DNA of 64,000 bases. It comes from Candidatus Magasanikiibacteriota bacterium (GTDB lineage Bacteria; Patescibacteriota; Patescibacteriia; Magasanikbacterales; 2-02-FULL-50-9b). Numbering within the stretch: position 1 is the first letter of the stretch; every line of letters starts with the position of its first letter. This document shows, in pieces, positions 8,088 to 36,539 of the stretch. Below the pieces are notes generated by a model. It was not told the origin of the DNA, searched no databases, and saw only the letters and a list, made by a program, of their open reading frames with translations. Location: positions 7,252 to 71,251 of the forward strand of contig CALRDW010000002.1 in the NCBI GenBank assembly GCA_943355025.1. The letters are read 5' to 3'. The position numbers and the translations under genes are program-made.

Positions 8088-8118
8088 AAAGCCGAGCCCC
8101 CATGAGCTCGGATTTTTT
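8088..8118. terminator. bidirectional rho-independent terminator between the 7030..8061 gene (+) and rpmB (-)
   Basis: ccgagc (8092..8097) / gctcgg (8106..8111) stem. A-run upstream and a T6 run (8113..8118) downstream. Confidence 0.6.
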
Positions 8119-8138
8119 AACCGCTGTATTTTTATGAA

Positions 8139-8324: not shown

Positions 8325-8404
8325 ACTGTTACAGTTAACAAACTAGAGTTTGAAGTGCCAGCACTGTATCAAATTAGTCTTTTTTTTGCAAGGAGCCCCT
8401 ATAT

Positions 8405-11209: not shown

Positions 11210-11367
11210 ATGGTTGGATTTGCAGCTGAATAGTTGTGTGTGCGTTGGAATATTACGCTAAAAAGACGGCTGCAGTCAACACCTTGTTGGGCCGTCTAAC
11301 CCAGTAAAGTTTAAATACCAAGGTTTACAATCGTGCCCATAAATGCTACTCTTTATGGAACTTCTGT

Positions 11368-12843
11368 ATGAATGAGCGTGGTATTTTTTCGAAATCAATT
11401 CACGGTGGGAAATGGTTATTGATGAGCGTTGTTGCGAATAAAGTAATCAATCTCGCTCCTTTTTTCGTTTTAACACGACTGTTATCTCCTATAGATTACG
11501 GTATTATAAACATAGCTTTTCTGGTTTCTTCGTTGGGAGATAAATTATTTAATATTAATTTTGATCAGGCTTTAATTAGAAAACGTGGCTCGATTGACGA
11601 AGAGCTGGCGACTGTGTGGACTTTTGGGCTGCTCCGCTCAGCATTCATAGCGTGTCTAATTTTTTTTCTGTCGGGCTGGGTTTCGGTTCAGCTGCATGTA
11701 CCATCAAGTTACATAAATATTATTCGGTATAGCGGACTTTTTTTGATTCTGAGCGCCTGTGCGAATCCTCAGCAGACAAAACTCTTTAGAGATTTGGACA
11801 TGCGCCCTTATTTTTGGCGCGATTTTGTTGCTGCAATTGTCTACGCAGTAGTATCGATAGGGTGGGCAGTTTTTGTAAGCGCAACCGTGTGGGCTTTATT
11901 TATTGGTTACGTTGCACGATTGCTCGCAGGAGTATTCATGACTTATTTTTTCGTGCCAATAATTCCAAGAATCAAATGGAATGTTCGGCATTTGTTGCCG
12001 CATGTGCGACAAGGTCTCCTATATTATTTTCAAGATTTGGGGAGCTATTTATTGTCTGCTACTGACGCGTTTATTGTTGCGCATCTTTTTACAGTAACGG
12101 ACGTTGGATTTTTTACTCGCGCACAAGATACTGCATCAATGGTATCGTCCTCGCTTCTATCAGTTATAAATAAATTAGCTTTTTCCGCCTACGCAAATTT
12201 ACAAACTCAGTTAGAAAAAGTCAGAGATGGTTTTTTAAAAAATCTGGATGTGTTTTTAATGCTGAGTCTACCTTTTTGCGTGCTCATCATTTTAGATGGT
12301 GGTGAAATTGTGCGCATTCTTTTTGGAGAAAAATGGTTAGCGCTTGTTTTACCTCTCAAGATTTTTTCATTTGGAACAATTTTTATCAACATTTCAAATA
12401 GTATAACACCGATATTAAACGCATTGGGTTACGCAAGGTATGTTGTAAAAATAAATGCTGTTCAGCTTTGTGCGATGGTAATTGCCGTTGTGTTCGGCGC
12501 TCATTTCGGTGGCCTTATTGGTTCCGTGATTGGGGTCGTGTGTGCAAGCATCATTACATTCGGTATCGGATTTTTTAAATTGAATGCAGTATTAAAAATT
12601 GATTTTAGTCATTACAGTGCGCCAATAATCAGCGGTTTCGCGGCTTCATTAGCGACCGTTCTCGCCTCCATTTTTCTGAGGCATTATTATTTTAACTCAG
12701 GTTCGAAAATTTTGTTTGTTGTTTTGATGAGCCTTCTCAGTAGTATTTACTACTCGGTTTTATTTATTACAAGTTATAAATTGCAAGCGGGCCCGTGGTT
12801 TACGCTACGCAAAGTCTTTACTGAATTCATCAGACTTCACTAG
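11368..12843 (+). CDS. polysaccharide biosynthesis protein, Wzx-like oligosaccharide flippase (MOP superfamily)
   Basis: 491 aa with ~12-14 TM helices and the typical length and topology of O-antigen/teichoic-acid flippases. Divergent from gmd. Confidence 0.65.
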   Translation: MNERGIFSKSIHGGKWLLMSVVANKVINLAPFFVLTRLLSPIDYGIINIAFLVSSLGDKLFNINFDQALIRKRGSIDEELATVWTFGLLRSAFIACLIFFLSGWVSVQLHVPSSYINIIRYSGLFLILSACANPQQTKLFRDLDMRPYFWRDFVAAIVYAVVSIGWAVFVSATVWALFIGYVARLLAGVFMTYFFVPIIPRIKWNVRHLLPHVRQGLLYYFQDLGSYLLSATDAFIVAHLFTVTDVGFFTRAQDTASMVSSSLLSVINKLAFSAYANLQTQLEKVRDGFLKNLDVFLMLSLPFCVLIILDGGEIVRILFGEKWLALVLPLKIFSFGTIFINISNSITPILNALGYARYVVKINAVQLCAMVIAVVFGAHFGGLIGSVIGVVCASIITFGIGFFKLNAVLKIDFSHYSAPIISGFAASLATVLASIFLRHYYFNSGSKILFVVLMSLLSSIYYSVLFITSYKLQAGPWFTLRKVFTEFIRLH

Positions 12844-12891
12844 TTGACGTACTGTAGATCACAGATTACTATATAATAAATAAATGATCCT

Positions 12892-14022
12892 ATGATCCCG
12901 TACGGTCGCCAAACAATAGATGAAGATGATATCGCTGCAGTTGTTTCTGTATTGAAATCGGATTGGTTGACGCAAGGTCCTCATATTTTAGAATTTGAAA
13001 AAGCGCTCGCTGAATATTGCGGTGCGCGGTTTGCAGTTGTAGTTTCAAATGGAACAGCAGCGCTTCATACCGCATACCATACACTTCATCTCAAGCCAGG
13101 CGATGAAATTATTACATCGCCACTTACATTTGCTGCAACAACCAATGCAGCGTTGTGGGAAGGCGCCCGCCCTATTTTTGTAGATATTGATCCGACGACA
13201 GGGAATTTAGATCCGAAGCTCATCGAAGAAAAAATAACAGAAAAAACGCGCGCGATTGTACCGATTCATTTTAGCGGACGGCCAGCTGACATGGATTCAA
13301 TTCGAGAAATTGCAGATCGACACAAACTCGCGATTATCGAAGATGCGTGTCACGCTCTCGGCGCAGTATATAAAGGAAAAAAAATCGGCTCGAGTAGCGG
13401 GTTAGTCGCGTTTAGTTTTCATCCTGTAAAAGGAATTACTACTGGCGAGGGTGGTGCGGTACTCACAAATGATGAGGATGTGTATAAAGAGATGAAACGT
13501 TTTGCATCACATGGAATTTCAAAAGAAAATTTTGTTCGAGAATCTCCGGGTGCTTGGTATCATGAGATGCAAATATTGGGAAATAATTATCGCATGACAG
13601 ACATGCAAGCGGCACTTGGCACAAGCCAGCTTAAAAAAATCGATTCATTTATTTCACGTCGTCGTGAAATTGCACGGCGGTATAGAGCAGAACTTTCTGC
13701 AGGTTCAAATTTTGAACTTCCACCAGCGGATACTGCGGACTATCAATCTGCGTGGCATTTATATGTAATTCGGTTGCGCGGAAAAAATACATCTCGGCGT
13801 GCGGAAGTTTTTGGGAAACTTCGGGACGCAGGCATTGGTGTGCAGGTACATTATATCCCTGTGTACCTACATCCGTATTATGAGTCACTGGGGTATGTGA
13901 AGGGACTGTGTCCGTTAGCAGAGAATTATTACGAAGCTGAAATTTCTTTGCCGATTTTTCCAAGCCTGACTGACGCTGAACAGGATTTTGTGATACGCAC
14001 TCTGCGTATAGTGCTCGCATAA
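12892..14022 (+). CDS. DegT/DnrJ/EryC1/StrS family PLP-dependent sugar aminotransferase
   Basis: N-terminal IPYGRQTIDEDDIAAV...GPHILEFEKALAEYCG...VVSNGTAALH. The SFHPVKGITTGEGGAV motif holds the Schiff-base lysine context. Confidence 0.85.
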   Translation: MIPYGRQTIDEDDIAAVVSVLKSDWLTQGPHILEFEKALAEYCGARFAVVVSNGTAALHTAYHTLHLKPGDEIITSPLTFAATTNAALWEGARPIFVDIDPTTGNLDPKLIEEKITEKTRAIVPIHFSGRPADMDSIREIADRHKLAIIEDACHALGAVYKGKKIGSSSGLVAFSFHPVKGITTGEGGAVLTNDEDVYKEMKRFASHGISKENFVRESPGAWYHEMQILGNNYRMTDMQAALGTSQLKKIDSFISRRREIARRYRAELSAGSNFELPPADTADYQSAWHLYVIRLRGKNTSRRAEVFGKLRDAGIGVQVHYIPVYLHPYYESLGYVKGLCPLAENYYEAEISLPIFPSLTDAEQDFVIRTLRIVLA

Positions 14023-14027
14023 ATAAT

Positions 14028-15122
14028 ATGGATTTATTTAAGCCAGATAATTTTTCCTCGTCAGAGGTTGTTTTTAAAAAAAATTTAAACCATAGCCTTG
14101 ATTTTTTTTTAAAGGTGTTTAATTATTATTTTAAATCGCCAGTACTAATCAGTATTGAGGAGTTGGGCGGGCGTGCGATTAACTCTCAGAATTTTCGTAT
14201 TAAGCTCGAAACTGACGACGGTATTTTACATGATGTGCTATTTCGTCGATGCATTTTTTTCTCGGACCAGATTCAAATTATCTCATGTCTCAAGGTTATC
14301 GCAGCAAGCCGCATCTATGGAGCAGCCGTTCCGGAGGTTCTAAAAACAATTGAGGGGCTTCAATTCATAACACATGCAGGTGAGTTTTTCGTTCTATTTA
14401 ATTTTATATCAGGGAATTATTTTGTTCCTCATATTCTCGCCTACAGCTCTCTTGCGCAATCACTTGCTAGATTGCATCGTTCATTCGTGATCTTAGATGA
14501 GGATCTCGTGAACGCTATTCGAACAGAAAGTCAGAAAAATATAAAAGCGTATTATAATAAGGTAACGGAGTATTCGCGTGCTGATTTTGAATTTTTTTTG
14601 AATATGGTTGATCCAGAAATTCGAGTGGAATTAACAAATTTAATGCCACTTATAGATACGACAGCGCGGACTGTGGGCAAACTTAATGAATGCTATTCAC
14701 AAATTATCCATTCGGACATGCACCCGCATAATGTCCTGTTTGAGGGAGATGCACTCGAAGCGATACTCGATTTTGATGCACTTCGATATGCAGAGCGAGC
14801 GCGCGATGTTGGTATGGCGCTCTATCGATTCGGTCGACAATTTTTTGTTGCAACACACGCAATAGACTCGTGTGATCTGCATGATCAGGCACACGAATAT
14901 ACGAAGAGATTCATACAAGAGTATGCTGCAGTGAATCCATTGACACAAATAGAATTAGAGTATATGCCGTTCATTGTCGCTGATGAATTTATAAAAAAAT
15001 TGCTTTTTGTACTCAGAAGTGTGTATATTGAGAAGAATACGGTGTGGGCGGCAGACATTAGTAAGTTTTGTAGCGCGTTATCAGAAATTACTTTTTTTTG
15101 GGATTATGACACACAAAACTAA
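14028..15122 (+). CDS. aminoglycoside/choline-kinase-like phosphotransferase (APH fold)
   Basis: Catalytic loop IHSDMHPHNVLF and Mg-binding ILDFD. 364 aa. Confidence 0.6.
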   Translation: MDLFKPDNFSSSEVVFKKNLNHSLDFFLKVFNYYFKSPVLISIEELGGRAINSQNFRIKLETDDGILHDVLFRRCIFFSDQIQIISCLKVIAASRIYGAAVPEVLKTIEGLQFITHAGEFFVLFNFISGNYFVPHILAYSSLAQSLARLHRSFVILDEDLVNAIRTESQKNIKAYYNKVTEYSRADFEFFLNMVDPEIRVELTNLMPLIDTTARTVGKLNECYSQIIHSDMHPHNVLFEGDALEAILDFDALRYAERARDVGMALYRFGRQFFVATHAIDSCDLHDQAHEYTKRFIQEYAAVNPLTQIELEYMPFIVADEFIKKLLFVLRSVYIEKNTVWAADISKFCSALSEITFFWDYDTQN

Positions 15123-16401
15123 ACGCGAGCAGATTAGCGATATTTTGCAATTTATTCCGGCTGCATCACAAACGCTTAGTAAAAATCCGACACAATTCGT
15201 TGTGGGTGTTTCACCAGTAACTGCATCATACGCAAAGGGCGCGTATCTGTGGGATATCGAAGGTAAGCCATACTTAGATTTGATACTTGCGCTTGGGCCC
15301 ATGATTTTTGGTTATGGAAACGAGAGAATTGATAGTGCGGCACATAAACAAATCGAGCGCGGGACAATTTTTTCATTGCCGTCTGAAAATGAAATCGTGC
15401 TTGCACGATTGCTTGCTGATGTCGTTCCGTGTGCAGAAATGAGTCGATTTGTTTTAAATGGTGCTGATGCGACAACGGGGGCAGTTCGTTTAGCACGACA
15501 CATTACGAAGCGGGATCACGTTGCTGTTTGCGGCTATCACGGCTATGAGGATTGGAGCATTTGCGTGCGTAATGGTCGGAGTGCTGGGGTGCCTCAAATT
15601 AACAAAACACTGACACACGAATTTGTTTATAACGATATCGCATCACTCAGGCAGATTTTTTTAGATAATCCGGGAGAGATTGCGGCTGTTGTTCTTGAGC
15701 CTGTTGCAAGCGAAAAACCACTTGACGGTTTTTTGGAGGCAGTAAAAAATGTGGCACATGAGCACGGTGCCATTTTAATTTTTGATGAAATGGTCACTGG
15801 TTTTAGATGGGCGATTGGTGGCGCACAAGAATATTTTGGTGTCGTGCCCGATATTGCATGCTTTGGAAAAGCGATATCCTGTGGGTATCCGCTCGCGGCA
15901 ATTTGTGGGAAGCGTGAATACATGCGACATATGGATGAGGTATTTGTTTCGATGACGTTCGCAGGATTTACACTCGGAATTGCTTCTGCACTTGAAGCGA
16001 TAACAATGATGCGTGAGCTAGGTGACGTTCATACGCACATGCATCGGACAGGAGAGTATCTCATTGGAAAAGCGAATGAAGTTTTTACCGCAAATAATTT
16101 ACCGATAGAATTTATTGGGTACGGGCCTCATCCTGTCATGCGCGTGAAACTTCCAGAGGGCGATTCGCGTTTAGTAAAAACATACATCATGCAGGAGATG
16201 CATAAGGCGGGTATATTATTTAATTCATCGATGATGATTGGGTATATTCACACAGAACAGCACATGAACGAAGTTATTGCTGTGTTGCAGAGTGCGTGCT
16301 TGGTTATTGCATCAAATAGGGTCGGAGATTCATTTGAAAATCTGCGTGGATTTTTTGAGGGCGACATTGTTGCACCACGATCAGTGCGTGTTGAACAATA
16401 G
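15106..16401 (+). CDS. class-III PLP aminotransferase (glutamate-1-semialdehyde aminomutase-like)
   Basis: FDEMVTGFRWAIGGAQEYFGVVPDIACFGKAISCGYPLAA is the class-III AT lysine region. Start moved to ATG 15106 (MTHKTKR), overlapping the upstream stop by 17 nt. Confidence 0.8.
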   Translation: MTHKTKREQISDILQFIPAASQTLSKNPTQFVVGVSPVTASYAKGAYLWDIEGKPYLDLILALGPMIFGYGNERIDSAAHKQIERGTIFSLPSENEIVLARLLADVVPCAEMSRFVLNGADATTGAVRLARHITKRDHVAVCGYHGYEDWSICVRNGRSAGVPQINKTLTHEFVYNDIASLRQIFLDNPGEIAAVVLEPVASEKPLDGFLEAVKNVAHEHGAILIFDEMVTGFRWAIGGAQEYFGVVPDIACFGKAISCGYPLAAICGKREYMRHMDEVFVSMTFAGFTLGIASALEAITMMRELGDVHTHMHRTGEYLIGKANEVFTANNLPIEFIGYGPHPVMRVKLPEGDSRLVKTYIMQEMHKAGILFNSSMMIGYIHTEQHMNEVIAVLQSACLVIASNRVGDSFENLRGFFEGDIVAPRSVRVEQ

Positions 16402-16402
16402 T

Positions 16403-17026
16403 ATGTTTGACGATAAAAAAATTCGTGCAATAATTTTTGATTGGGGGGGCACGTGCGGTGAAGACAGTGAACCGTTTGCTTTACAAAGTTTGTTGCAGAC
16501 ACTCGGGAAAACCCCAGATGAAATTTCGTATGTCGTGCGCGATTTACTAGATGATTTTTATAAAGGGAAAATTTCATCAGATTTGTTTTGGCCACGTGTG
16601 CTTGAGCGCTTCGGTTTATTGGAAACACAAGATATGAACTGTGTGTTATTAAGCGCTGCGTATCTCTCGACATGCCGCCCGTTTGATGAAATATTGGGCA
16701 GTATTATAGAGCTAAGAAAAAAATATAAAACAGGACTTTTATCCAATCTAACGCCACTTATGCGTGATCATATTCGTAAACAAGAGAGTTGGTTTGATTA
16801 TTTTGATGCCGAAGTATATAGTTGCGACTCTAATATTATGGAGAGGAAGCCAGATATATCCATGTATAATGCGATTACAAAAAAACTCGGTGTTTCTCCA
16901 GAGAACTGTTTATTCATTGATAACACTTCACACAACGTAATCGCAGCCAAGGATTTCGGGATGCAAGGACTATTATTTACATCTGTTGCACAGTGTCTCG
17001 CAGATACTGCCGCGCTGCTACAATAG
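16403..17026 (+). CDS. HAD-superfamily hydrolase / phosphatase
   Basis: Motif I IIFDWGGT immediately after start ATG 16403. A downstream GLLSN block is consistent with HAD motif II. The HAD assignment is tentative (confidence 0.55), and the product could instead be a mutase-type HAD. Confidence 0.55.
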   Translation: MFDDKKIRAIIFDWGGTCGEDSEPFALQSLLQTLGKTPDEISYVVRDLLDDFYKGKISSDLFWPRVLERFGLLETQDMNCVLLSAAYLSTCRPFDEILGSIIELRKKYKTGLLSNLTPLMRDHIRKQESWFDYFDAEVYSCDSNIMERKPDISMYNAITKKLGVSPENCLFIDNTSHNVIAAKDFGMQGLLFTSVAQCLADTAALLQ

Positions 17027-17029
17027 TTT

Positions 17030-18016
17030 ATGAGATTTATTATTATTGGCGGAGGATCAATAGGCAAACGGCATCTCAGGAATCTGTTATCGCTTGGCGA
17101 ATCCGATATTGCTGTCGTTGAGCAGAACGCCGAACGCATGTCAGCCATTGCGGCGGAATTTAATATCAAAACATTTTCTTCGATGCGGCAAGCATTTGAA
17201 TCTGAAACATTTGAGTGCGCTTTTATTTGCTCACCTTCCCGATTCCATCAAGAACAAGCGTTGTATTGCGCTGACCATAAGTGCGATTTATTTATTGAAA
17301 AACCTCTTTCACATACAATGGATGGAATTTTTGAATTAAAAAATGTAATTGAAAAAAATAAATTAATAACAATGGTCGGGAGTAATTTTAAATTTTATCC
17401 ATCATTACAGAAAATTAAAAGCTTGTTGGATGCTGGGGCCATTGGAAAAATTCTTTCCGCGCGATTGCAGTTTGGACAATATTTGCCTGATTGGCATCCG
17501 TGGGAAGATTACCGACAGGGCTACAGTGCGAATGAGCGCCTCGGTGGTGGGGTGCTTCTTGATTCACACGAATTTGATTATGCGACCTGGCTGCTCGGGG
17601 ATGTGTCTAAAGTTACGTGCGTAGCAAAAAAAATAAGTGACCTTGAAATTGATGTTGAAGATGTTGCGGCAGTTATTTTGCACCTAAAAAGCGGAGCACT
17701 TGTTGAACTTCATCTCGATTATGTTCAGCGATTTTATAGCCGCTGTTATGAGTTTTTTGGTGAAACAGGGACAATCATGTGGGACATAAAAGAAAAAAAA
17801 GTTTTACTCAAAACCAAAGAAGCGGGCGAACAAATTTTTGAGCTCATTTCTGAATACGATTTTAATACCATGTATATAGATGAACTCAAACATTTTTTGG
17901 CGTGTGTTGAAGCGCGAAGTAATACAGTTTCAAGTGTAATTGTCGGAGCGCGCGTGCTCGAAATTATCACTGCAGCAAAAGAATCTTCGCTGAAAGAAAA
18001 AACGATTGAAGTATGA
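17030..18016 (+). CDS. Gfo/Idh/MocA family NAD(P)-dependent oxidoreductase
   Basis: MRFIIIGGGSIGKRHL Rossmann N-terminus and the C-terminal alpha/beta domain typical of this family. Confidence 0.8.
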   Translation: MRFIIIGGGSIGKRHLRNLLSLGESDIAVVEQNAERMSAIAAEFNIKTFSSMRQAFESETFECAFICSPSRFHQEQALYCADHKCDLFIEKPLSHTMDGIFELKNVIEKNKLITMVGSNFKFYPSLQKIKSLLDAGAIGKILSARLQFGQYLPDWHPWEDYRQGYSANERLGGGVLLDSHEFDYATWLLGDVSKVTCVAKKISDLEIDVEDVAAVILHLKSGALVELHLDYVQRFYSRCYEFFGETGTIMWDIKEKKVLLKTKEAGEQIFELISEYDFNTMYIDELKHFLACVEARSNTVSSVIVGARVLEIITAAKESSLKEKTIEV

Positions 18017-18765
18017 AAATTGCAGTGATTATTCAAGCGCGTATGGGATCGAAACGCTTGCCAGGAAAAACGCTTATGATGATCGGTGGTAAACCTGCGA
18101 TCGCTCACGTTGTAGATCGTGTACGGCGCTCAAAACTCATGACGCACTATTGTGTGGCAACGACAACCAATGTAGAAGATGATACACTTGTTGCGTGGGC
18201 GGCTGAATACGGCGCACCCTGTTTTCGAGGGAATGAGCTTAATGTGCTTGATCGGTATTATGAAGCAGCACGATCAGTGTGTGCAGATGTCGTTGTTCGT
18301 GTCACAGGGGATTGTCCGCTCGTGGACCCCACCGTCATTGATTCGGTAATCAATCGTTATTTGAAGGGTGATAAAATTTTTGATTATGTTTCAAATATAC
18401 ATCCGCCAACATTTCCGGATGGTTTGGATGTCGAAGTTTTTTCATTCAAGTCATTAGAATGTGCATGGCGAGAGGCGCAGTTATTGTCGGAACAGGAGCA
18501 TGTGACGCCGTACATATGGAAACATCCGGAGCTGTTTAATCAAACATCAATTTCTTCTGAGGTTGATCTGTCAAATAATCGATGGACGTTAGATTCCTCT
18601 GAAGATCTGGTTTTTTTTCAACAATTAGCTTTGCACTGTGCGTTTCTTGAGAACGCAACGACAGAAGAGATTTTGGAAATTATTCAAAATAATCCTGTTC
18701 TGCCCACATTGAATTGCCAACACATTCGTAATGAGGGGTATGAGAAATCGCTTTTAATTGATTGA
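18013..18765 (+). CDS. cytidylyltransferase of the CMP-NeuAc synthetase / PseF / SpsF family
   Basis: IAVIIQARMGSKRLPGKTL is the acylneuraminate cytidylyltransferase N-terminal motif. 250 aa. Confidence 0.75.
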   Translation: MKIAVIIQARMGSKRLPGKTLMMIGGKPAIAHVVDRVRRSKLMTHYCVATTTNVEDDTLVAWAAEYGAPCFRGNELNVLDRYYEAARSVCADVVVRVTGDCPLVDPTVIDSVINRYLKGDKIFDYVSNIHPPTFPDGLDVEVFSFKSLECAWREAQLLSEQEHVTPYIWKHPELFNQTSISSEVDLSNNRWTLDSSEDLVFFQQLALHCAFLENATTEEILEIIQNNPVLPTLNCQHIRNEGYEKSLLID

Positions 18766-18827
18766 TCAATAAGTGGTACGTTATTGCAAAAAAAATTTCC
18801 CCGTGTTAGTCTTGCCGATATCAACAT

Positions 18828-19811
18828 ATGTCATACGAATGTTTCAGCCAAAAAGTAGTTTTAGTTACTGGTGCCACAGGATCTTTTGGGCGTAAATTTA
18901 TTACAACACTGCTTGCAGAAAGTTGTGCAAAAAAAGTAATTGTTTTTAGTCGGGATGAATTGAAGCAATCGCACATGCAGGTTGAAATTTCTGATCCAGA
19001 AAATCGCCTTCGTTTTTTTATCGGAGATGTGCGTGATCTCGATCGTTTGCGCCGTGCATTTCATGGTGTCGATATTGTTGTTCATGCGGCAGCACTGAAA
19101 CAAGTGCCAGCACTCGAATACAATCCGTATGAGGCTGTTAAGACTAATGTGCTGGGTTCACAGAACGTAATTGATGCCGCAATTGATTGTGGCGTTAAAC
19201 AGGTGGTTCTTATTTCAACAGACAAGGCAGCTAATCCAGTTAATTTGTATGGGGCCACAAAGATGACTGCTGAGCGATTGTTCATTCAAGGCAATGTGTA
19301 CAGCGGAGGGACTACAAAGTTCGCTGTTGTACGATACGGAAATGTTGTTGGAAGTCGCGGAAGCATCGTTGATATTTTAAAAAACAGAAAAGAAGGAGGT
19401 TCTGTTAGAATCACTGATGAGGCGATGACTCGGTTTTGGATCACACTTGATCAAGGCGTGGCAATCGTTGTTCATGCAATCGAAACCATGCGTGGTGGCG
19501 AAATTTTCATTCCAAAAATTCCGAGCATGCGAGTTGTTGATTTGATGGAAGCGATTGCGCCAGGCTGCCAGCGAGAAATAATCGGCATTCGTCCGGGTGA
19601 AAAAATCAACGAAGTTTTGATTACAGAAGAGGAATCACGCACTGGCAGAGAATTTGATGGCCACTTTGTAATTATTTCAGGTATTGAAATTGGAAATTCG
19701 CCGTGGTTGGAAGGATCGCCGCTGCCCGCTGATTTTCGTTATGCAAGTCACACTAATACGCACTGGCTCTCAGTTGAGGATATTAAGAAGATTGTTTATC
19801 CCGAGAAGTGA
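18828..19811 (+). CDS. UDP-N-acetylglucosamine 4,6-dehydratase (inverting), PseB/FlaA1/CapD-like
   Basis: VLVTGATGSFGRKFI N-terminus. ~330 aa. YGATKMTAERL is the SDR YxxxK. Confidence 0.75.
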   Translation: MSYECFSQKVVLVTGATGSFGRKFITTLLAESCAKKVIVFSRDELKQSHMQVEISDPENRLRFFIGDVRDLDRLRRAFHGVDIVVHAAALKQVPALEYNPYEAVKTNVLGSQNVIDAAIDCGVKQVVLISTDKAANPVNLYGATKMTAERLFIQGNVYSGGTTKFAVVRYGNVVGSRGSIVDILKNRKEGGSVRITDEAMTRFWITLDQGVAIVVHAIETMRGGEIFIPKIPSMRVVDLMEAIAPGCQREIIGIRPGEKINEVLITEEESRTGREFDGHFVIISGIEIGNSPWLEGSPLPADFRYASHTNTHWLSVEDIKKIVYPEK

Positions 19812-21303
19812 TCTCGGTGTATTTTTCCATGAGATAGTCGGTATAGGGCATTATTTTTTTGACTATCGTTGCGAAGTCTGATTCGTTATCGCTCCACAAT
19901 TTTATTATATCGACCGGGGTGGATTCTTTTAGGAGCGCGGATATAAAATTAACAATCTCTTGTTCATTATAAGAATGCCGTTCCAATTTCTCCTTAATTA
20001 TAGTTGGAAGCTCATATAAATTTGTACACCGTGTCGCGCCAGACAAAATATTGTAGAATACGCTGCCAAATGTGACGACTGGCTTTTTGAACAGAAGCGC
20101 CTCCCATCCTGCAGAACCTGTAATCGTGGTAATAATCTTTGCTTTTTCAATGATCGCAAAACTTTTAAATTCTGGACGGATAAGTTTAACGTTCGGCATT
20201 TTTTTTATTTTTTTGTAGAAAGAGCGTGGACGATAACCCATCATTGCGGGGTGCTCTTTGACATAGAGCTTATAATTAAATGGCAACGATTGAGCGATTT
20301 GAAGGATAAGCGCAGCTTGGTCTGTATTATATGGTGCGAGTAAAAGAGTCGCTATTTCTGGATCGTAATGAAGTGGGTAAAAAGCAAATGGTTCATTCCA
20401 TTTTGGTTCGTCATATAAATCTTCGAAACCACGCATGACGCGACACTTGCGTTTAATTCTGTCGATCAAAAACCAGAACGGATTTTCATCCATGTAGGTT
20501 CTTTTGGTGCTTCTGATGTACCGTATTACTATGGTTACAAACCATCGAATCGAACGAATTAATTTTGATGGCAGTAAAAAACTCATTTGGCGCCGACGAT
20601 TTATCGGCTGCATATCAGGGCTGCAATTATCAAGTGGTGGTGTAGGCGCATCTTGAAATTCTTTTAATTTTTTTCTTCCCGCGTTTTCAAAATCATTTTT
20701 TTCAACCCCATTATTTATTTTTAAAAAGTATTCCTCAGCAAATGTAAGATGCTTGTAGTCTTCAGTTAATGAATAAAAACCATTGAGGCGTGTTTCATTC
20801 TGAACCAGTGTCGGGATGCCCATTTTTTTAGCGATTTGATATAGAAGATAACTGTAGTGGCCGCCAATGACAAAAATAAAAACAAAATCGGGCCTTTCTT
20901 TTTTGAGCATTTCAATAATGGCGCGCGCCTTAATCTGAAGAATGCGTTTTAAATCGTCATGATCATACATTGGTTCTGAATAAGGATATTCACGAACCAG
21001 CTGGCTCTGCATAAGAACACGGTCCAATGTCATGAGCGGCCACAAAGAGGGGATACCGTACTCTCTCTCGAGTGAATTAATAAATTCAGTATCAATCTCT
21101 TCCGTTCGATACTTTTCGTGTAGGTCAACGTCTACAAGCAGTGTTGAGTATAAGATTTCCGATTGATTTTTTAGAAAACTAAGAGCCGCGTGCGTGTCTG
21201 TGTAGCCGCAGAATTCCGTAACACCATATTTATCTCTAAGGCCAATTGCCATGGCATGTCCAAGCATCGAATAGTTTCGGTGTAAAAGAAAGCATGCTTT
21301 CAT
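19783..21303 (-). CDS. hypothetical protein, possibly a TagF/KpsS-like GT-B transferase
   Basis: 506 aa. LYVKEHPAMMG resembles the K-x-HP motif of CDP-glycerol glycerophosphotransferases and capsule KpsS/KpsC proteins. TITGSAGWEALLFKKPVV looks like a GT-B donor-binding end. Assignment is tentative. Confidence 0.4.
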   Translation of the reverse strand: MKACFLLHRNYSMLGHAMAIGLRDKYGVTEFCGYTDTHAALSFLKNQSEILYSTLLVDVDLHEKYRTEEIDTEFINSLEREYGIPSLWPLMTLDRVLMQSQLVREYPYSEPMYDHDDLKRILQIKARAIIEMLKKERPDFVFIFVIGGHYSYLLYQIAKKMGIPTLVQNETRLNGFYSLTEDYKHLTFAEEYFLKINNGVEKNDFENAGRKKLKEFQDAPTPPLDNCSPDMQPINRRRQMSFLLPSKLIRSIRWFVTIVIRYIRSTKRTYMDENPFWFLIDRIKRKCRVMRGFEDLYDEPKWNEPFAFYPLHYDPEIATLLLAPYNTDQAALILQIAQSLPFNYKLYVKEHPAMMGYRPRSFYKKIKKMPNVKLIRPEFKSFAIIEKAKIITTITGSAGWEALLFKKPVVTFGSVFYNILSGATRCTNLYELPTIIKEKLERHSYNEQEIVNFISALLKESTPVDIIKLWSDNESDFATIVKKIMPYTDYLMEKYTEITSRDKQSS

Positions 21304-24186: not shown

Positions 24187-24197
24187 TTCTCATTCGT

Positions 24198-34072: not shown

Positions 34073-35191
34073 ATGACACCAAACAAAGTTTTTATTTTTG
34101 GTTACGCACGAACACCTTTTGGAAAATTTCAGGGTATTTTTAAGGATGTTTCGGCGCGAGACTTGGGCGCGGCCGCTGTTCGGGAGGCAATTATACGCGC
34201 TGGTGTTCCAGTCACAAACATTGACGCTGTTTATTTTGGAAATGCGCTTCAAGCACGCGGGGGACAAAATCCAGCGCGACAAATTTTGTTAGCAGCTGGA
34301 ATTCCGGAAACGGCTGCTGCTGAGACAATTAATAAAGTGTGTTCATCATCGCTCGCAGCGCTTGCACACGGGCTGCGTGAAATTCAGGATGGCCACGCAA
34401 CGTACGTTGTTGTTGGCGGCGTTGAAAGCATGAGCACTGCACCGTTTTTGAACGAGGATGGTTTGTCGGATGCATATGGGGAACACAAATCCATGGGTGA
34501 ACTTGCGGAAATTTTTGCGCAGGACAAAAAAATTTCTCGCGCTGATCAAGATGCGTGGGCCATTCGAAGTAATGCACGCGCGTATGCTGCGATGCAGAAC
34601 AATATTTTAAAAAAAGAAATTATACCGTTTGAACTCAAAGGTAAAATATTCGAGACTGATGAATGTGTTCGTGAATCGGCGCCAGAAAAAATAAAATCCT
34701 TGCCTCCAATCTTTGATGCATCGACCGGAATGATAACGGCGGCGTCAGCTTCTAAAATATGCGACGGTGCAGCAGCACTGGTGCTTGGCGGCGAGAACGC
34801 GCGAGAATTATTTTCTGCAGAGCCACTTGCCCGAGTTGTCGATGTTGTTTCATTTTCAACACGCCCCGCCGAATACACAGGCGCTCCTGTCGGCGCGATT
34901 CGTAAACTGTTAGAAAAAAATAATTTGCGCGTCGAGGAGATCGATGCATTTGAAATACATGAGGCGTTTGCAGCGACAGCTTGTTTCGCGGTGCGTGAGC
35001 TCGGAATTTCAGAGGCTCGTGTAAATATTTTTGGTGGTGCACTTGCAATCGGTCATCCGCTTGCGACGTCTGGTGCGCGACTCGTTGGCAGCCTAGCTCT
35101 TCGAATTGCTCGCGCTGAATGCACACGCGCAATCGCTGTAACGTGTAATGGCGGTGGCGAAGCCGTTGCCGCACTACTTGAAAAAATATGA
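34073..35191 (+). CDS. acetyl-CoA C-acetyltransferase (thiolase II)
   Basis: VFIFGYARTPFGKFQG N-terminus, the active-site Cys region NKVCSSSLAAL, and the C-terminal CNGGGEAVAALLEKI. Start moved to ATG 34073. Confidence 0.9.
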   Translation: MTPNKVFIFGYARTPFGKFQGIFKDVSARDLGAAAVREAIIRAGVPVTNIDAVYFGNALQARGGQNPARQILLAAGIPETAAAETINKVCSSSLAALAHGLREIQDGHATYVVVGGVESMSTAPFLNEDGLSDAYGEHKSMGELAEIFAQDKKISRADQDAWAIRSNARAYAAMQNNILKKEIIPFELKGKIFETDECVRESAPEKIKSLPPIFDASTGMITAASASKICDGAAALVLGGENARELFSAEPLARVVDVVSFSTRPAEYTGAPVGAIRKLLEKNNLRVEEIDAFEIHEAFAATACFAVRELGISEARVNIFGGALAIGHPLATSGARLVGSLALRIARAECTRAIAVTCNGGGEAVAALLEKI

Positions 35192-35871
35192 AAATAACAT
35201 ACGTAATTTCAACGATCAAATCATGGAATATCGATGCAGCACTCGAGCTGCAAAAGAATGATCTTGATCATAATTGGGTAATTATTTCAGACAAAAAAGA
35301 TTTGACTACCGAATCTCTTAAAGAATTAAATCCGCGATATATTTTTTTCCCACACTGGTCATGGATTATTCCGGAGGATATTTTTTCTACATACGAATGC
35401 GTTGTCTTTCATATGACAGACCTGCCGTATGGTCGTGGTGGGAGTCCTCTTCAAAATTTAATTGTGCGCGGACACGACAAAACTTTCGTGAGTGCGATTC
35501 GAGTTGTGCGCGAGATGGATGCGGGCGACGTCTATATGAAACAACCTGTTTCACTTGCGGGAACGGCTGATGATATTTTGCAGCGCGTATCAAAATGTTC
35601 GTTTGAAATGATTAAAGAAATAATTGTATCAGAACCAGTGCCATCGCCTCAGGTTGGCGACGTAACAGAGTTTAAACGACGCAAACCAGAAGAAGGATCG
35701 TTGGCACCACTTGCATCGCTGCAAGAAGTTTATAATCATATTCGGATGCTCGACGGCGAGGGGTATCCGCGCGCATTTTTAGAGACGGAACACATGCGTT
35801 TTGAATTTGAGGATGCGGAAATTACAAATGAGAAACTTGTTGCGCGAGTCACGATCAAGAAAAAAATATGA
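35188..35871 (+). CDS. formyltransferase-fold protein, putative sugar N-formyltransferase
   Basis: VVFHMTDLPYGRGGSPLQNLI matches the HxSLLPxxRG catalytic loop of Fmt/PurN/ArnA-N domains. 227 aa. Confidence 0.55.
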   Translation: MKITYVISTIKSWNIDAALELQKNDLDHNWVIISDKKDLTTESLKELNPRYIFFPHWSWIIPEDIFSTYECVVFHMTDLPYGRGGSPLQNLIVRGHDKTFVSAIRVVREMDAGDVYMKQPVSLAGTADDILQRVSKCSFEMIKEIIVSEPVPSPQVGDVTEFKRRKPEEGSLAPLASLQEVYNHIRMLDGEGYPRAFLETEHMRFEFEDAEITNEKLVARVTIKKKI

Positions 35872-36539
35872 AGAAAATAATTTTAGTTATTGCAGCGCAT
35901 CCGGATGACGAATTATTGGGCGTGGGCGCAACTCTTGCTGCGCATGTACGGGACGGCGACGATGTTTTTTGTGTAATCCTTGGTGAAGGAATGAATTCGC
36001 GTGAAGGCGCGCAGAGTGAAGAGCTTGCAGCGCTTCACGCCAACGCGCGCACGGCTGGTGCGATTATTGGTTTTAAGGAAATGTATTTTTGCAATGTACC
36101 TGACAACGCATTCGATACCGTTAGTTTACTTTCGATCACACAAAGGGTTGAAAAATATATCGCGGAAATTAAACCAGAAGTAATCTATACGCATCACGGT
36201 GGCGACCTCAACATTGATCACCGCCTAACGTTTCAGGCTGTACTCACAGCATGCCGACCCTGTAATGAACATGCTCCGCAGATTTTATATACATTTGAAA
36301 CTGTTTCGTCGACTGAATGGCAAAGCAAAGATGCACAACAATTTAAACCAACGTCGTATAAAAATATCGAAGCAACATTTGAAATTAAATTGCGCGCGCT
36401 TCGATGTTATGTTTCTGAGATGCGTGAGTTTCCACATTCACGATCGGAAAAAGGTCTCGAAGTTTTGGCGCAGTATCGCGGCATGGAATCGGGAATGCTT
36501 CTCGCTGAGGCATTTTGTCTTGTACGTCAAAAAATATGA
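35868..36539 (+). CDS. PIG-L/LmbE family N-acetyl-sugar deacetylase
   Basis: ILVIAAHPDDELLGVGATLA (the AHPDDE zinc-binding motif). 223 aa. Confidence 0.85.
   Translation: MKKIILVIAAHPDDELLGVGATLAAHVRDGDDVFCVILGEGMNSREGAQSEELAALHANARTAGAIIGFKEMYFCNVPDNAFDTVSLLSITQRVEKYIAEIKPEVIYTHHGGDLNIDHRLTFQAVLTACRPCNEHAPQILYTFETVSSTEWQSKDAQQFKPTSYKNIEATFEIKLRALRCYVSEMREFPHSRSEKGLEVLAQYRGMESGMLLAEAFCLVRQKI

Follow-up and report, generated by a model that had tools for sequence, protein, structure and literature searches.

The locus raises the question of what a member of the Patescibacteria makes with a closely packed string of genes for a kinase, a class-III aminotransferase (AT3), a HAD hydrolase, a Gfo/Idh/MocA oxidoreductase (GFO), a cytidylyltransferase (CT) and a PseB-like dehydratase. 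The initial annotation could match this combination to no textbook pathway, a fair judgement, as the function of the cassette is undescribed in the searchable literature. Family assignment with profile HMMs across a 64-kb stretch of DNA (the window) indicates, with a probability of roughly 0.6, that the region encodes the core of a pseudaminic-acid-type pathway together with a tailoring module of uncharacterised function.

Organization of the locus

All seven genes of the string singled out by the initial annotation were recovered by the HMM check with the strands, coordinates and families given there, but the unit starts one gene further 5': the packed operon opens with pseC, directly upstream of the kinase gene, which the initial annotation had missed (Table 1). 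The intervals from pseC to pseB are, in gene order, 5, -17, 1, 3, -4 and 62 nt: the pseC stop codon lies 5 nt 5' of the kinase start, and CT shares its first 4 nt with the end of GFO. The pseB gene and the PF05159 transferase gene are convergent and overlap by 29 nt. The long open reading frame of AT3 starts at 15007, and the ATG at 15106 agrees with the public gene call; for the PF05159 transferase, the start of the public gene call (21267) is likely the true one. Genes annotated around the module include GT2, GT4, PMT_2 and GDP-mannose dehydratase, and because a Wzx-like flippase is encoded directly upstream, the module can be placed within a locus for assembly of a lipid-linked glycan (approximately 2637-28162).

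Table 1. Coordinates in the window of the module, the flippase gene upstream of it and the satellite genes
Feature	Coordinates	Strand	Family assignment
Wzx-like flippase (Polysacc_synt_3)	11368..12843	+	Pfam PF13440, E 4e-53
pseC	12892..14022	+	NCBIfam TIGR03588 equivalog
APH-fold kinase	14028..15122	+	APH, PF01636, E 5e-12
AT3, class-III aminotransferase	15106..16401	+	Pfam Aminotran_3, E 1e-40
HAD-IA hydrolase, putative phosphatase	16403..17026	+	Pfam Hydrolase, E 9e-15
Gfo/Idh/MocA oxidoreductase (GFO)	17030..18016	+	Pfam GFO_IDH_MocA N- and C-terminal domains
Cytidylyltransferase (CT)	18013..18765	+	CTP_transf_3, E 3e-35
pseB	18828..19811	+	NCBIfam TIGR03589 equivalog
PF05159 transferase	19783..21303	-	Capsule_synth, E 4.6e-10, 39.9 bits vs cutoff 20
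Formyltransferase-like protein	35188..35871	+	resembles ArnA and Fmt formyltransferases
PIG-L/BshB-type de-N-acetylase	35868..36539	+	NCBIfam BshB1- and BshB2-like
PseH-like GNAT N-acetyltransferase	36515..37018	+	TIGR03585 PseH, below cutoff

Predicted pseudaminic acid core, cytidylyltransferase and glycosyltransferase

Equivalog scores (499.6 bits versus a cutoff of 423.5 for PseC, 454.7 bits versus a cutoff of 407.75 for PseB) identify the pseC product as a predicted UDP-4-amino-4,6-dideoxy-N-acetyl-beta-L-altrosamine transaminase and the pseB product as a predicted inverting UDP-GlcNAc 4,6-dehydratase. All characterised CTP_transf_3 members known to us use the free acid as substrate and yield CMP-ulosonic acids. 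The CT of the window scores only 31.6 bits with the PseF equivalog model (cutoff 205.7), has as its best PDB match 6oew ('Cytidylyltransferase', 1e-38), and shares 39% identity over 231 aa (E 1e-41) with Caulobacter crescentus FlmC, the sequence of which was taken from the supplement of PMC7591256. It is predicted to be a CMP-nonulosonate synthetase of the FlmC/SpsF type, functionally analogous to PseF. FlmC, itself a non-PseF enzyme, completes the synthesis of CMP-pseudaminic acid, is required in Caulobacter, and belongs to a six-gene set sufficient for glycosylation with pseudaminic acid (Pse) in Escherichia coli (PMC7591256). As this reconstituted pathway works without AT3 or an oxidoreductase, CMP activation in itself does not depend on the trio of AT3, oxidoreductase and CT. 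A Bacillus subtilis spsF mutant still makes legionaminic acid, but delivery to the spore surface fails (PMC7439481).

The PF05159 protein matches KpsC structures (E 1.4e-6). In the family alignment, conservation reaches at least 90% at P315-E316, at K349 and P352 of the K-E-H-P motif, and at E401. Relatives include transferases of nonulosonic acids: the characterised pseudaminyltransferase KpsS1 is GT118, and Gtr59 is predicted to be a further member (PMC12887879, PMC4487303). Homologs are plentiful in Patescibacteria and in four loci (L121, L122, L041 and L087) adjoin PseB/DegT/GFO/CT genes. The suggestion of the initial annotation that this KpsS-like protein transfers a CMP- or CDP-activated unit to a glycan is plausible as regards a CMP-sugar, given its membership in the family of KpsS1 and Gtr59, and the protein (KpsS/KpsC/KpsS1/Gtr59-like) is the predicted transferase for the CMP-activated nonulosonic acid.

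A recurrent trio in pseudaminic acid clusters

Comparative genomics indicates that AT3, an oxidoreductase (either GFO or an aldo-keto reductase, AKR) and CT recur together as a conserved trio. A profile search found at least 595 relatives of AT3 in species-representative genomes. Among the 59 other AT3 loci that are well flanked (5 kb or more on each side), every one encodes PseI (59/59), and CT is encoded in 58, PseB in 55, PseC in 53, and GFO or AKR in 55. The trio is located in Pse clusters across many phyla and occurs without any kinase in thousands of proteins and loci; CT-AT3 fusions were annotated in 18 loci and GFO-CT-AT3 fusions in seven, and some cassettes place a second NeuB between GFO and CT. 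In Anoxybacteroides (L015), the neighbors of AT3 include curated equivalogs of PseB, PseG, PseH, PseI and PseC along with a PseD/Maf-like protein. The initial annotation's pointer toward a CMP-activated nonulosonic acid is borne out by the PseB and PseC equivalogs, the FlmC/SpsF-like CT and the constant presence of PseI.

AT3, the hub of the module, is by its sequence a class-III PLP enzyme similar to glutamate-1-semialdehyde aminomutase (GSAM) that is predicted not to be HemL. Both D227 and the PLP lysine K255 are fully conserved. Relative to solved GSAMs, the gating loop is shortened by approximately 8-10 residues, and the FEAG segment is deleted. An ordinary HemL of tetrapyrrole synthesis that merely happens to lie in a sugar locus is extremely improbable: GSAMs are the top matches among curated families and in the PDB, and many database records are so named, but AT3 scores far below the relevant cutoffs (245 bits versus 527 for TIGR00713 hemL, 302 versus 486 for PRK06209), has the shortened loop and has lost the Glu406 segment, and in its relatives is fused to cytidylyltransferase, oxidoreductase or kinase and is invariably Pse-linked.

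Among curated families, the oxidoreductase comes nearest to inositol 2-dehydrogenase and UDP-GlcNAc 3-dehydrogenase, though it reaches neither cutoff; related proteins in the PDB include two sialic-acid C4 oxidoreductases, YjhC and NanOx (E ~1e-12). About half of AT3 loci have AKR in place of GFO. The trio has been noticed in Aeromonas, Legionella and Vibrio, with no function assigned in the literature found. An AKR-CT fusion has been described in a Vibrio Pse cluster (PMC7371886), and the group I flagellin islands of Aeromonas have the order pseB-pseC-AKR-pseF-AT-pseG-pseI (PMC7874193). Aeromonas hydrophila AH-1, which from its position in the supplement appears to be in the strain list of subgroup IA, bears on its flagellin a Pse-like glycan of 403 Da, versus 316 Da for Pse5Ac7Ac (PMC4691044); the link between this glycan and the trio is a correlation only.

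The absent synthase and the satellite genes

The initial annotation saw no NeuB/PseI-type synthase, and this holds for the whole 64-kb window: tblastn with PseI proteins of the candidate phyla radiation (CPR) found no match, nor did local profiles for PseI, NeuB and PseG, even at E<=10. Approximately 10 kb of contig beyond the downstream end was likewise negative for PseI and PseG; a look-up upstream of the window gave short contigs, none reaching past its start. As every other well-flanked AT3 locus carries PseI, this locus is an outlier, with L111/L112 as a second CPR example that has no PseI nearby. Other CPR loci have pseI and acyltransferase genes exactly between pseC and the kinase gene.

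Three genes at 35188-37018 are probably satellite tailoring genes of the same pathway, as judged by their orthologs in AT3-type Pse clusters. The formyltransferase-like protein is 60% identical to the product of the gene following pseI in L007 and 47-50% identical to those of genes in five AT3-type Pse clusters (L052, L061, L062, L071 and L079), and the de-N-acetylase is 40-52% identical to products of genes within 13 such clusters. The GNAT protein has PseH (TIGR03585) as its sole NCBIfam match (40 bits versus a cutoff of 93), scores 128 bits with a PseH profile built from the loci, and is 30-40% identical to their PseH or PseG-PseH proteins.

The locus could in principle be a decaying or incomplete remnant that lost pseI, pseG and pseH between pseC and the kinase gene and has ceased to make a nonulosonic acid, or could belong to an episymbiont that does no more than activate and tailor host-derived Pse. 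The 5-nt gap at the site of pseI and the acyltransferase genes in other CPR loci, and the unique lack of PseI among well-flanked AT3 loci, would fit such an origin, but all eight open reading frames are intact and tightly coupled with catalytic motifs kept, assemblies of several samples gave the same sequence, and related tailoring genes are still present in another part of the window, so that the pathway genes seem dispersed rather than lost; loss or host supply is very improbable. PseI and the UDP-sugar hydrolase PseG are assumed to be encoded elsewhere in the genome, in the manner of the formyltransferase, deacetylase and PseH-like genes, which lie 14 kb away.

The kinase and HAD additions

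The predicted APH-fold small-molecule kinase belongs to a rare family, with scores >280 bits in approximately 35 of 1.84 billion representative clusters, and is confined to CPR/DPANN-type and metagenome loci. All 43 homologs keep H228-x-D230-x4-N235 and D248-F-D250 unchanged. The AF2 model has a pLDDT of 94, and in fold the kinase best matches homoserine kinase II, N-acetylhexosamine 1-kinase, amicoumacin kinase, APH(9) and aminopropanol kinase (6ef6). AT3 follows the kinase gene in every locus with downstream sequence, in most directly, and the HAD gene is found in the kinase-bearing loci for which sequence downstream of AT3 is available. Single fusions of kinase-AT3 (L100) and CT-kinase-AT3 (L102), together with a HAD-kinase fusion (P0005), tie the kinase and HAD to the trio; formyltransferase or GNAT domains are fused to the kinase in P0031 and P0035. 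The kinase-AT3-HAD-GFO-CT string is conserved elsewhere, as the initial annotation could not know: independent CPR contigs carry it with protein identities of 31-64%, well beyond a chance arrangement. The best NCBIfam match of the HAD protein is TIGR02247 (below cutoff), and it weakly matches a sugar-1-phosphatase family. Its motif I, FDWGG(T/V), keeps the nucleophile Asp but has no Asp at +2; absence of this second Asp, typical of phosphatases, counts against a phosphatase role.

A different chemistry, unlikely but to be reckoned with, is kinase-assisted elimination: a hydroxyl beside a free amine (for example O8 beside N7, or O4 beside de-acetylated N5, on a Pse precursor or Pse) would be phosphorylated, AT3 would act as a phospho-lyase eliminating the phosphate, and the oxidoreductase would reduce the resulting ketone to give a deoxygenated or deaminated nonulosonic acid, with the HAD clearing unused phospho-intermediate. 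APH-fold kinases are partnered with class-III-fold PLP lyases in the pairs of hydroxylysine kinase with 5-phosphohydroxylysine phospho-lyase, aminopropanol kinase with its phospho-lyase, and GenP with GenB3 in gentamicin dideoxygenation. The kinase-AT3 and CT-kinase-AT3 fusions, the kinase gene always ahead of AT3, the aminopropanol kinase fold match and the PIG-L deacetylase, which could free an amine, all agree with elimination, as does the interchange of aldo-keto and Gfo-type enzymes, seen likewise among the ketoreductases of deoxysugar pathways. However, the kinase is missing from 76 of 83 AT3 loci, and a phosphate can therefore not be a requirement of the ancestral AT3 reaction; the nearest relatives of AT3 are aminomutases and transaminases rather than known phospho-lyases; and we know of no deoxygenated Pse.

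It is improbable that the product is not a nonulosonic acid at all, but a modified hexosamine or amino-alcohol phosphate, derived from the PseB/PseC product via GFO and AT3 without NeuB-type condensation and activated as a CDP or CMP derivative by kinase, HAD and nucleotidyltransferase, a logic like that of ADP-heptose, CDP-glycerol and CDP-choline. The lack of PseI and PseG in the window and in L111/L112, the lack of NeuB within 9 kb of the CPR PF05159 loci L121 and L122, the N-acetylhexosamine 1-kinase and sugar-1-phosphatase matches and the CT-kinase-AT3 fusion would suit this route. Against it stand the FlmC/SpsF-like CT within CTP_transf_3, the PseI of the other well-flanked loci, kinase-bearing ones included except L111/L112, the second NeuB inside some cassettes, and the abundance of the trio without kinase. 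The initial annotation had itself drawn the kinase, aminotransferase, HAD and oxidoreductase toward phospho- or amino-substituted alcohols or sugars activated with CDP or CMP; this is not supported, as the trio is fixed and often fused in complete Pse clusters that lack the kinase, and as the CT is of the ulosonic-acid (CMP) type.

Proposed pathway

By homology, PseB and PseC would convert UDP-GlcNAc to UDP-4-amino-4,6-dideoxy-beta-L-AltNAc, the FlmC/SpsF-type CT would yield a CMP-activated nine-carbon acid, and the PF05159 enzyme would transfer it to a glycan assembled by the surrounding Wzx/glycosyltransferase locus. Linkage and fusions suggest that GFO and AT3 act with CT on the same nonulosonate, free or CMP-linked. 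Which atom is attacked, and in which direction the redox and PLP steps run, is guesswork; the favored guess is that oxidation of a hydroxyl to a ketone followed by transamination would introduce an extra amino group on the sugar skeleton or an N-acyl side chain, and that the product would be a modified Pse rather than Pse5Ac7Ac. Aldo-keto reductases more often reduce carbonyls than oxidise alcohols, and conversion of amine to ketone to alcohol, or elimination and then reduction, fits the exchange of AKR for GFO at least as well. Most speculatively, in the CPR/DPANN version the kinase may phosphorylate a hydroxyl of the same intermediate just before the PLP step, with the phosphate serving as a handle or leaving group and then being removed by the HAD. 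The locus is not an orphan: it is a CPR variant of the pathway to pseudaminic acid, a bacterial sialic-acid-like sugar.

Organization of the locus

The window (G+C content 41-49%) includes a large glycan-assembly locus that encodes epimerases, dehydratases, GT2 and GT4 glycosyltransferases, a PMT_2-type transferase, a Wzx-like flippase, a GDP-mannose 4,6-dehydratase and a second amino-sugar module. The nearest relatives of the window proteins are all from Patescibacteria (CPR), and several metagenome samples, as well as the metagenome-assembled genome GCA_943359715.1, yielded copies identical to the window genes. The initial annotation had recognized seven genes, for an APH-fold kinase, a class III pyridoxal phosphate (PLP) enzyme or aminotransferase (AT3), a HAD hydrolase, a Gfo/Idh/MocA oxidoreductase (GFO), a cytidylyltransferase (CT), a PseB-like dehydratase and a convergent TagF/KpsS-like transferase (PF05159 family); these genes are real, and profile matches at their positions bore out the family named for each, but the unit had been started one gene too late. 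The packed operon opens with pseC, and the successive gaps and overlaps from pseC to pseB are 5, -17, 1, 3, -4 and 62 nt, after correction of the starts of the AT3 and HAD genes. The pseB and PF05159 genes are convergent with a 29-nt overlap, and a GC-rich hairpin with a downstream T-run coincides with the pseB stop and may be their shared terminator; a promoter and terminator scan gave counts not above the shuffled expectation, with this hairpin as the sole plausible site.

The second amino-sugar module, directly after the PF05159 gene, encodes two methyltransferases, a C-methyltransferase with a zinc ribbon (Methyltransf_13/14) and a SAM methyltransferase, together with a small cupin and a DegT-family aminotransferase; these genes suggest an amino-deoxy sugar that is methylated on carbon and/or nitrogen. 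Near a PF05159 homolog in one CPR locus (L121), this C-methyltransferase again has a DegT aminotransferase as its partner, and it stands alone in the range shown of another (L122). Two paralogs without a Pfam match (27% identical, E 1e-21) bracket the whole glycan island, and three more ORFs without a Pfam match lie beside them. An ORF of the UDP-glucose/GDP-mannose dehydrogenase family (274 aa) retains its N-terminal and central domains, lacks the C-terminal one, and may be truncated or split.

Positions of features in the window and in loci recovered for comparison (L numbers)
Sequence	Feature	Position	Strand
Window	ORF without Pfam match, paralog 1	48-884	
Window	ORF without Pfam match	922-2421	
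Window	Glycan-assembly locus	~2.6-28.2 kb	
Window	pseC	12892-14022	+
Window	APH-fold kinase	14028-15122	+
Window	AT3 (start corrected)	15106-16401	+
Window	AT3 to CT	15106-18765	+
Window	HAD hydrolase (start corrected)	16403-17026	+
Window	GFO	17030-18016	+
Window	CT	18013-18765	+
Window	pseB	18828-19811	+
Window	Convergent overlap	19783-19817	
Window	PF05159 gene	19783-21303	-
Window	Hairpin and T-run	19801-19817	
Window	Second amino-sugar module	21457-24971	
Window	UDP-glucose/GDP-mannose dehydrogenase family ORF	26342-27166	
Window	ORF without Pfam match	28212-28973	
Window	ORF without Pfam match	29080-29562	
Window	ORF without Pfam match, paralog 2	29754-30992	
Window	AMP-binding enzyme (minus strand) and thiolase	32060-35191	
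Window	Formyltransferase-like, PIG-L deacetylase and GNAT genes	35188-37018	
Window	GNAT (PseH-like)	36515-37018	
L005	Second NeuB-type synthase	14841-15836	
L010	Second NeuB-type synthase	6408-7397	
L108	Second NeuB-type synthase	12739-13734	
L031	Second NeuB-type synthase		
L040	Second NeuB-type synthase		
L005	AP_endonuc_2 protein	11133-11900	
L009	AP_endonuc_2 protein	8043-8810	
L108	AP_endonuc_2 protein	9031-9798	
L104	AP_endonuc_2 protein	2021-2971	
L112	PduL-type phosphate propanoyltransferase	4466-4963	
L009	Two CotH-kinase-like proteins	13634-17556	
L012	PseG-PseH-like ORF	6286-7842	
L060	PseG-PseH-like ORF	11190-12842	
L074	PseG-PseH-like ORF	13204-14880	

Probable pseudaminic acid biosynthesis

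The window shares with the canonical pseudaminic acid (Pse) pathway of Campylobacter and Helicobacter (PseB, PseC, PseH, PseG, PseI, PseF) the enzymes of its first two steps, and it also encodes a PseH-like GNAT. The dehydratase had been placed in the right family under too weak a label, as it is a true equivalog of PseB (inverting UDP-GlcNAc 4,6-dehydratase; TIGR03589, 454.7 bits, cutoff 407.75), and the product of the operon's first gene is an equivalog of the UDP-4-keto sugar aminotransferase PseC (TIGR03588, 499.6 bits, cutoff 423.5). By homology, PseB and then PseC would convert UDP-GlcNAc to UDP-4-amino-4,6-dideoxy-L-AltNAc. The GNAT is the sole PseH candidate in the window, and PseH is its only NCBIfam match, a weak one (40 bits, cutoff 93). 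Unlike the canonical pathway, the window has no PseI and no PseG, its CT is not a PseF equivalog, and the kinase, class III PLP enzyme, HAD protein and Gfo/Idh/MocA oxidoreductase are four extras that have no role in the six-step scheme.

A local profile of the UDP-sugar hydrolase PseG matched nothing in the whole window at E ≤ 10. The absence of a NeuB/PseI-type synthase, already noticed from the sequence, was upheld by negative tblastn and HMM searches across the 64 kb, and no PseI is encoded in the ~10 kb of downstream flank, which carries housekeeping genes; on the upstream side, the contigs recovered were short and ended within the window. Every other well-flanked AT3 locus encodes PseI. 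Other CPR loci have pseI and acyltransferase genes between pseC and the kinase gene, an interval of 5 nt in the window. The pathway genes of this genome are plainly scattered: genes for a formyltransferase-like protein, a PIG-L deacetylase and the GNAT lie apart from the operon. They are 40-60% (GNAT 30-40%) identical to genes inside AT3-type Pse clusters elsewhere, and in one such cluster (L007) the formyltransferase-like and PIG-L deacetylase genes directly follow pseI. Because these tailoring genes are dispersed, and because a second CPR locus (L111/L112) likewise has no PseI within 10 kb on either side, pseI is assumed to be unlinked, elsewhere in the genome. A remnant locus or a salvage function is a very improbable reading of this gene set.

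The genes immediately upstream of this set of three encode an acetyl-CoA-synthetase-like AMP-binding enzyme and a thiolase (acetyl-CoA C-acyltransferase), which could be the source of an N-acyl group of the acetoacetyl or hydroxybutyryl type, such as Pse commonly carries. In many non-CPR loci, ORFs of ~500-560 aa occupy the place between AT3 and PseI where pseG and pseH are expected; their PseH-like region is 30-36% identical to the window GNAT, and they look like PseG-PseH fusions.

The cytidylyltransferase

The CT (Pfam PF02348, CTP_transf_3, E 3e-35), the only cytidylyltransferase in the nonulosonate cluster, fails the PseF model (TIGR03584, 31.6 bits, cutoff 205.7), and is instead 39% identical over 231/238 aa to FlmC of Caulobacter crescentus (E 1e-41; sequence taken from the published synthetic operon), which in the reverse check scores 253 bits on a profile built from the CTs of the annotated loci. 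The authors of the FlmC study describe it as unrelated to PseF, yet it is the last of six enzymes sufficient for Pse-dependent flagellin glycosylation in E. coli (PMC7591256), and a spsF mutant of B. subtilis still makes legionaminic acid (Leg) but loses its delivery to the spore surface (PMC7439481). The homology to FlmC, the role of FlmC in E. coli and the spsF mutant thus anchor the window CT as a predicted CMP-nonulosonate synthetase (CTP + nonulosonic acid to CMP-sugar) in the place of PseF. It resembles FlmC in full-length similarity, SpsF in Pfam family, and both in being the only cytidylyltransferase of a Pse or Leg cluster, but FlmC and SpsF are described as working with no partner aminotransferase or oxidoreductase (PMC7591256, PMC7439481), whereas the CTs of the window and of at least 595 other genomes are linked or fused to both. 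The expected end product is a CMP-activated 5,7-diamino-type nonulosonic acid; relatives have the cassette among PseH and PseI and, outside the CPR, PseG too. That the product is not a nonulosonic acid at all is unlikely.

A conserved trio of oxidoreductase, cytidylyltransferase and AT3

Searching species-representative genomes with the alignment-derived pattern CGYHGx[QED]DW identified relatives of AT3 in at least 595 of them, and the best 80 of these span more than 15 phyla, including Bacillota, Bacteroidota, Proteobacteria, Acidobacteriota, Planctomycetota, Nitrospirota, Omnitrophota and DPANN archaea. The profiles used to annotate all loci derive from the window and L015, a locus whose genes are curated equivalogs. 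Among the 59 AT3 loci with at least 5 kb on each side of AT3, all 59 have PseI, and the others present are a cytidylyltransferase (58/59), an oxidoreductase that is either GFO or an aldo-keto reductase (AKR; 55/59), PseB (55/59), PseC (53/59) and PseG (47/59). The usual gene order is pseB-pseC-(AKR or GFO)-CT-AT3-pseG-(pseH)-pseI; in the window, the stretch from AT3 to CT sits between pseC and pseB. CT and AT3 form a single protein in 18 annotated loci, and GFO, CT and AT3 form one of ~1028 aa in 7.

AT3 (Pfam Aminotran_3, E 1e-40) resembles glutamate-1-semialdehyde 2,1-aminomutase (GSAM, HemL) but scores below all HemL cutoffs (TIGR00713, 244.8 versus 527.3 bits; PRK00062, 246 versus 398; PRK06209, 302 versus 486). 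A profile alignment with four solved GSAMs revealed a deletion of 8-10 residues after the CGYHG motif and one of 4 residues at FEAG, which correspond to the active-site gating loop and the Glu406 segment of GSAM. A HemL identity was rejected on these scores together with the shortened gating loop and the loss of FEAG. The PLP lysine (K255) and the aspartate that contacts PLP N1 (D227) are invariant in 24 diverse members of the AT3 family.

The nearest relatives of GFO are inositol dehydrogenases and UDP-GlcNAc 3-dehydrogenases, and it is equally distant from the sialic-acid C4 oxidoreductases YjhC and NanOx. A PDB search gave generic relatives only; since their matches were no better than those of inositol dehydrogenases, NanOx and YjhC serve as a precedent rather than an assignment.

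The trio (in Aeromonas), or gene pairs resembling parts of it (in Legionella and Vibrio), has been noticed in known clusters, whose equivalence to the window proteins is by gene order and family, not direct alignment. Group I flagellin glycosylation islands of Aeromonas have the order pseB-pseC-aldo/keto reductase-pseF-class III aminotransferase-pseG-(pseH)-pseI (PMC7874193), and thus carry the trio inside a Pse cluster, with a HAD-IA hydrolase and no pseG in subgroup ID; they differ from the window in having AKR rather than Gfo, no APH kinase, a retained pseI, and flagellin glycosylation through Maf. The LPS cluster of Legionella pneumophila Sg6 is listed with a run of PseG, GSA-aminomutase and cytidylyltransferase, and the Pse cluster of Vibrio B9-25K2 contains an AKR-SpsF-like fusion noted as a possible replacement of NeuA (PMC7371886). 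A circumstantial lead is that the flagellin of A. hydrophila AH-1, a strain which appears from its position in a supplement to belong to subgroup IA (AKR and AT3, no pseH), bears a Pse-like sugar of 403 Da, versus 316 Da for Pse5Ac7Ac (PMC4691044). Mass arithmetic on the 403-Da glycan was abandoned, and no conclusion on its composition is drawn, because several isomeric compositions fit. The literature searched for a biochemical function of the trio gave genomic mentions only.

Kinase and HAD genes of the CPR/DPANN loci

A word-indexed search of 5.8 billion proteins returned 48 relatives of the kinase at E ≤ 1e-3, and a full scan of 1.84 billion cluster representatives with a kinase profile returned ~35 above 280 bits; a metagenome scan with the profile added ~20 kinase loci. 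A search for the same gene string in other genomes, as the initial annotation had proposed, established that the order kinase-AT3-HAD-GFO-CT recurs at 31-64% identity in Staskawiczbacteria, Magasanikbacteria, Peregrinibacteria and unbinned contigs, where the cassette lies beside pseB, pseC, a PseI-equivalog synthase and acyltransferases. AT3 follows the kinase gene in every locus with sequence downstream, and directly in most; permuted orders (GFO-kinase-AT3-HAD...CT; AKR-kinase-AT3-HAD-CT) also occur. The kinase is fused to AT3 (787 aa), to both CT and AT3 (CT-kinase-AT3, 1052 aa), and in other proteins to HAD, formyltransferase or GNAT domains. Among AT3 loci, kinase and HAD genes are confined to a CPR/DPANN and metagenome subset, and the trio is found in many phyla; the window cassette of five genes thus combines the widespread trio with a lineage-specific kinase/HAD extension.

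The kinase has invariant residues H228, D230, N235 and D248 and a nearly invariant D250 (HxDxxxxN catalytic loop and DFD/DFG metal-binding motif). Its sequence matched nothing in the PDB, and its AF2 model (pLDDT 94) matched bilobal APH-fold kinases with a Foldseek probability of 1.0: homoserine kinase II, N-acetylhexosamine 1-kinase, amicoumacin kinase, APH(9) and aminopropanol kinase, which do not pick out a single substrate. The HAD protein, which has generic relatives only in the PDB, retains the nucleophilic Asp of motif I (F-D-W-G-G-(T/V)), and has Gly or Ser in 7/7 homologs at the +2 position, where the DxDx(T/V) motif has its general acid/base; some sugar-1-phosphatases are without the +2 Asp.

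PseG is encoded in 0/7 of the kinase-bearing loci of the annotated set, and Aeromonas subgroup ID, likewise without pseG, has a HAD protein. Replacement of PseG by the kinase and HAD protein was rejected: two CPR/DPANN loci without the kinase (L031 and L087) are also without PseG, and a kinase makes no chemical sense for removal of UDP. For these reasons the link is kept as a correlation only.

Several cassettes have further members. A second, divergent NeuB-type synthase, below the PseI and NeuB cutoffs, lies in five loci between GFO and a divergent cytidylyltransferase, besides the upstream PseI equivalog, which hints at two different ulosonic acids per locus. A xylose-isomerase-like TIM-barrel protein (AP_endonuc_2, 255 aa) is an optional member of CPR cassettes, encoded just ahead of the kinase gene or between it and AT3. 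One locus (L112) has a PduL-type phosphate propanoyltransferase between HAD and CT, and another (L009) has two CotH-kinase-like proteins directly after the cassette. A distant kinase branch (L116-L119; 23-31% identity) is accompanied by a divergently oriented HAD gene and a PseH-like fusion protein of ~490 aa, with no AT3 in the stretch recovered.

Possible chemistry of the trio

Linkage and fusions suggest that GFO (or AKR), AT3 and CT share a single substrate molecule. The reading preferred here is that the oxidoreductase and AT3 would exchange a hydroxyl group for an amine by way of a ketone, at a site in the nonulosonate or in its N-acyl chain. By homology, FlmC-type CMP activation of the nine-carbon acid would come later than the PseB and PseC steps. 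A model is the synthesis of Kdo8N in Shewanella, in which the alcohol dehydrogenase KdnB and the aminotransferase KdnA act on Kdo before CMP activation. There too an oxidoreductase and a PLP aminotransferase swap a hydroxyl for an amino group on a 2-keto-3-deoxy sugar acid, beside a CMP-transferase, but the enzyme families and the sugar are different and there are no fusions, kinase or HAD protein, so that the likeness is one of analogy. A paper on acinetaminic acid gave no precedent for a dehydrogenase and an aminotransferase acting at the nonulosonate level. In the NanOx mechanism, a 4-keto group promotes loss of the C2 substituent; if C4 is the site of modification, oxidation and amination would therefore be expected before CMP activation.

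The most speculative step belongs to the CPR version, in which the kinase would act immediately before AT3 and the HAD protein would then strip the phosphate. A kinase, a 9-phosphate synthase, a HAD phosphatase and a CMP synthetase make up the sialic acid/KDN route of animals and Bacteroides, which thus likewise unites a kinase, a HAD phosphatase and a CMP-transferase in one nonulosonate pathway, and some cassettes have their own second NeuB between GFO and CT; the kinase of that route is of the ROK family, however, not APH, and its usual 6-/9-phosphate is impossible for Pse because Pse precursors are 6-deoxy.

The main mechanistic rival is that AT3 eliminates the phosphate and the oxidoreductase then reduces the resulting ketone, on the model of APH-fold kinases paired with class III-fold PLP phospho-lyases (hydroxylysine kinase and PHYKPL, aminopropanol kinase and its phospho-lyase, GenP and GenB3 of gentamicin biosynthesis). 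Such an elimination is favored by the fusions of kinase with AT3 and by the way AKR and GFO replace each other, and aminopropanol kinase is among the structural matches of the window kinase. The likeness is at the level of fold, not of a specific sequence relationship, and AT3 is far more widespread without the kinase: 76/83 AT3 loci do not have one, which argues against elimination as the ancestral reaction.

On the most far-reaching reading, the trio would be one catalytic unit, sometimes a single protein of 1028 aa and with the kinase fused on in CPR, which would define an unrecognized and very widespread branch of Pse biosynthesis leading to a structurally new nonulosonic acid, such as a tri-amino, amino-acyl or deoxygenated Pse; the 403-Da glycan of A. 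hydrophila AH-1 would be one product, and the CPR coupling of kinase and PLP enzyme a new form of sugar-acid editing. All parts taken jointly, this reading is tentative, with a probability of roughly one in three.

Predicted transfer to the glycan

The PF05159 protein (profile match 39.9 bits, cutoff 20) matches structures of KpsC (E 1.4e-6), and within its K-E-H-P motif the family conserves residues K349 and P352 to at least 90%. KpsS1 of this family is a characterized retaining pseudaminyltransferase (GT118), and Gtr59 and KpsS2 belong to the same family, with genes beside nonulosonate modules (PMC12887879, PMC4487303). The window protein shares with KpsS1, with Gtr59 and KpsS2 of Acinetobacter baumannii and with the Kdo transferases KpsC and KpsS (GT107) the family, an HP-containing motif and a gene beside a nonulosonic-acid synthesis module, but it is ~500 aa long, only ~100 residues align to PF05159 and KpsC, and its likeness to KpsS1 is at family level. 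Its CPR homologs are numerous and adjoin PseB, DegT, GFO and CT genes. This gene context makes it a plausible user of a CMP-nonulosonate or CMP-Kdo donor, and by homology it would transfer the CMP-activated acid to the glycan made by the surrounding Wzx/glycosyltransferase locus.

Significance of the tailoring module

The locus is a Pse-type cluster of a known kind, more than a routine sugar operon and not categorically new. Its tailoring module is conserved, and had been noticed before and never explained; the CPR-specific five-enzyme form was not found described in the literature searched. Flagella, capsules, LPS and S-layers can carry Pse and related acids, which affect motility, immune evasion and phage recognition. 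The Pse pathway is regarded as a solved six-step scheme, but many of the known Pse clusters, spread over at least 595 species-level genomes including those of Aeromonas, Legionella, Bacillus-type firmicutes, Acidobacteria and archaea, encode three extra, tightly coupled enzymes without an assigned reaction. Solving the chemistry of the trio would probably bring to light a new family of surface sugars in bacteria, and would explain orphan glycan masses and correct many annotations of 'glutamate-1-semialdehyde aminomutase'. As for the CPR organism that carries it, the locus indicates that even such very small episymbionts put resources into a surface glycan that is elaborate and sialic-acid-like.
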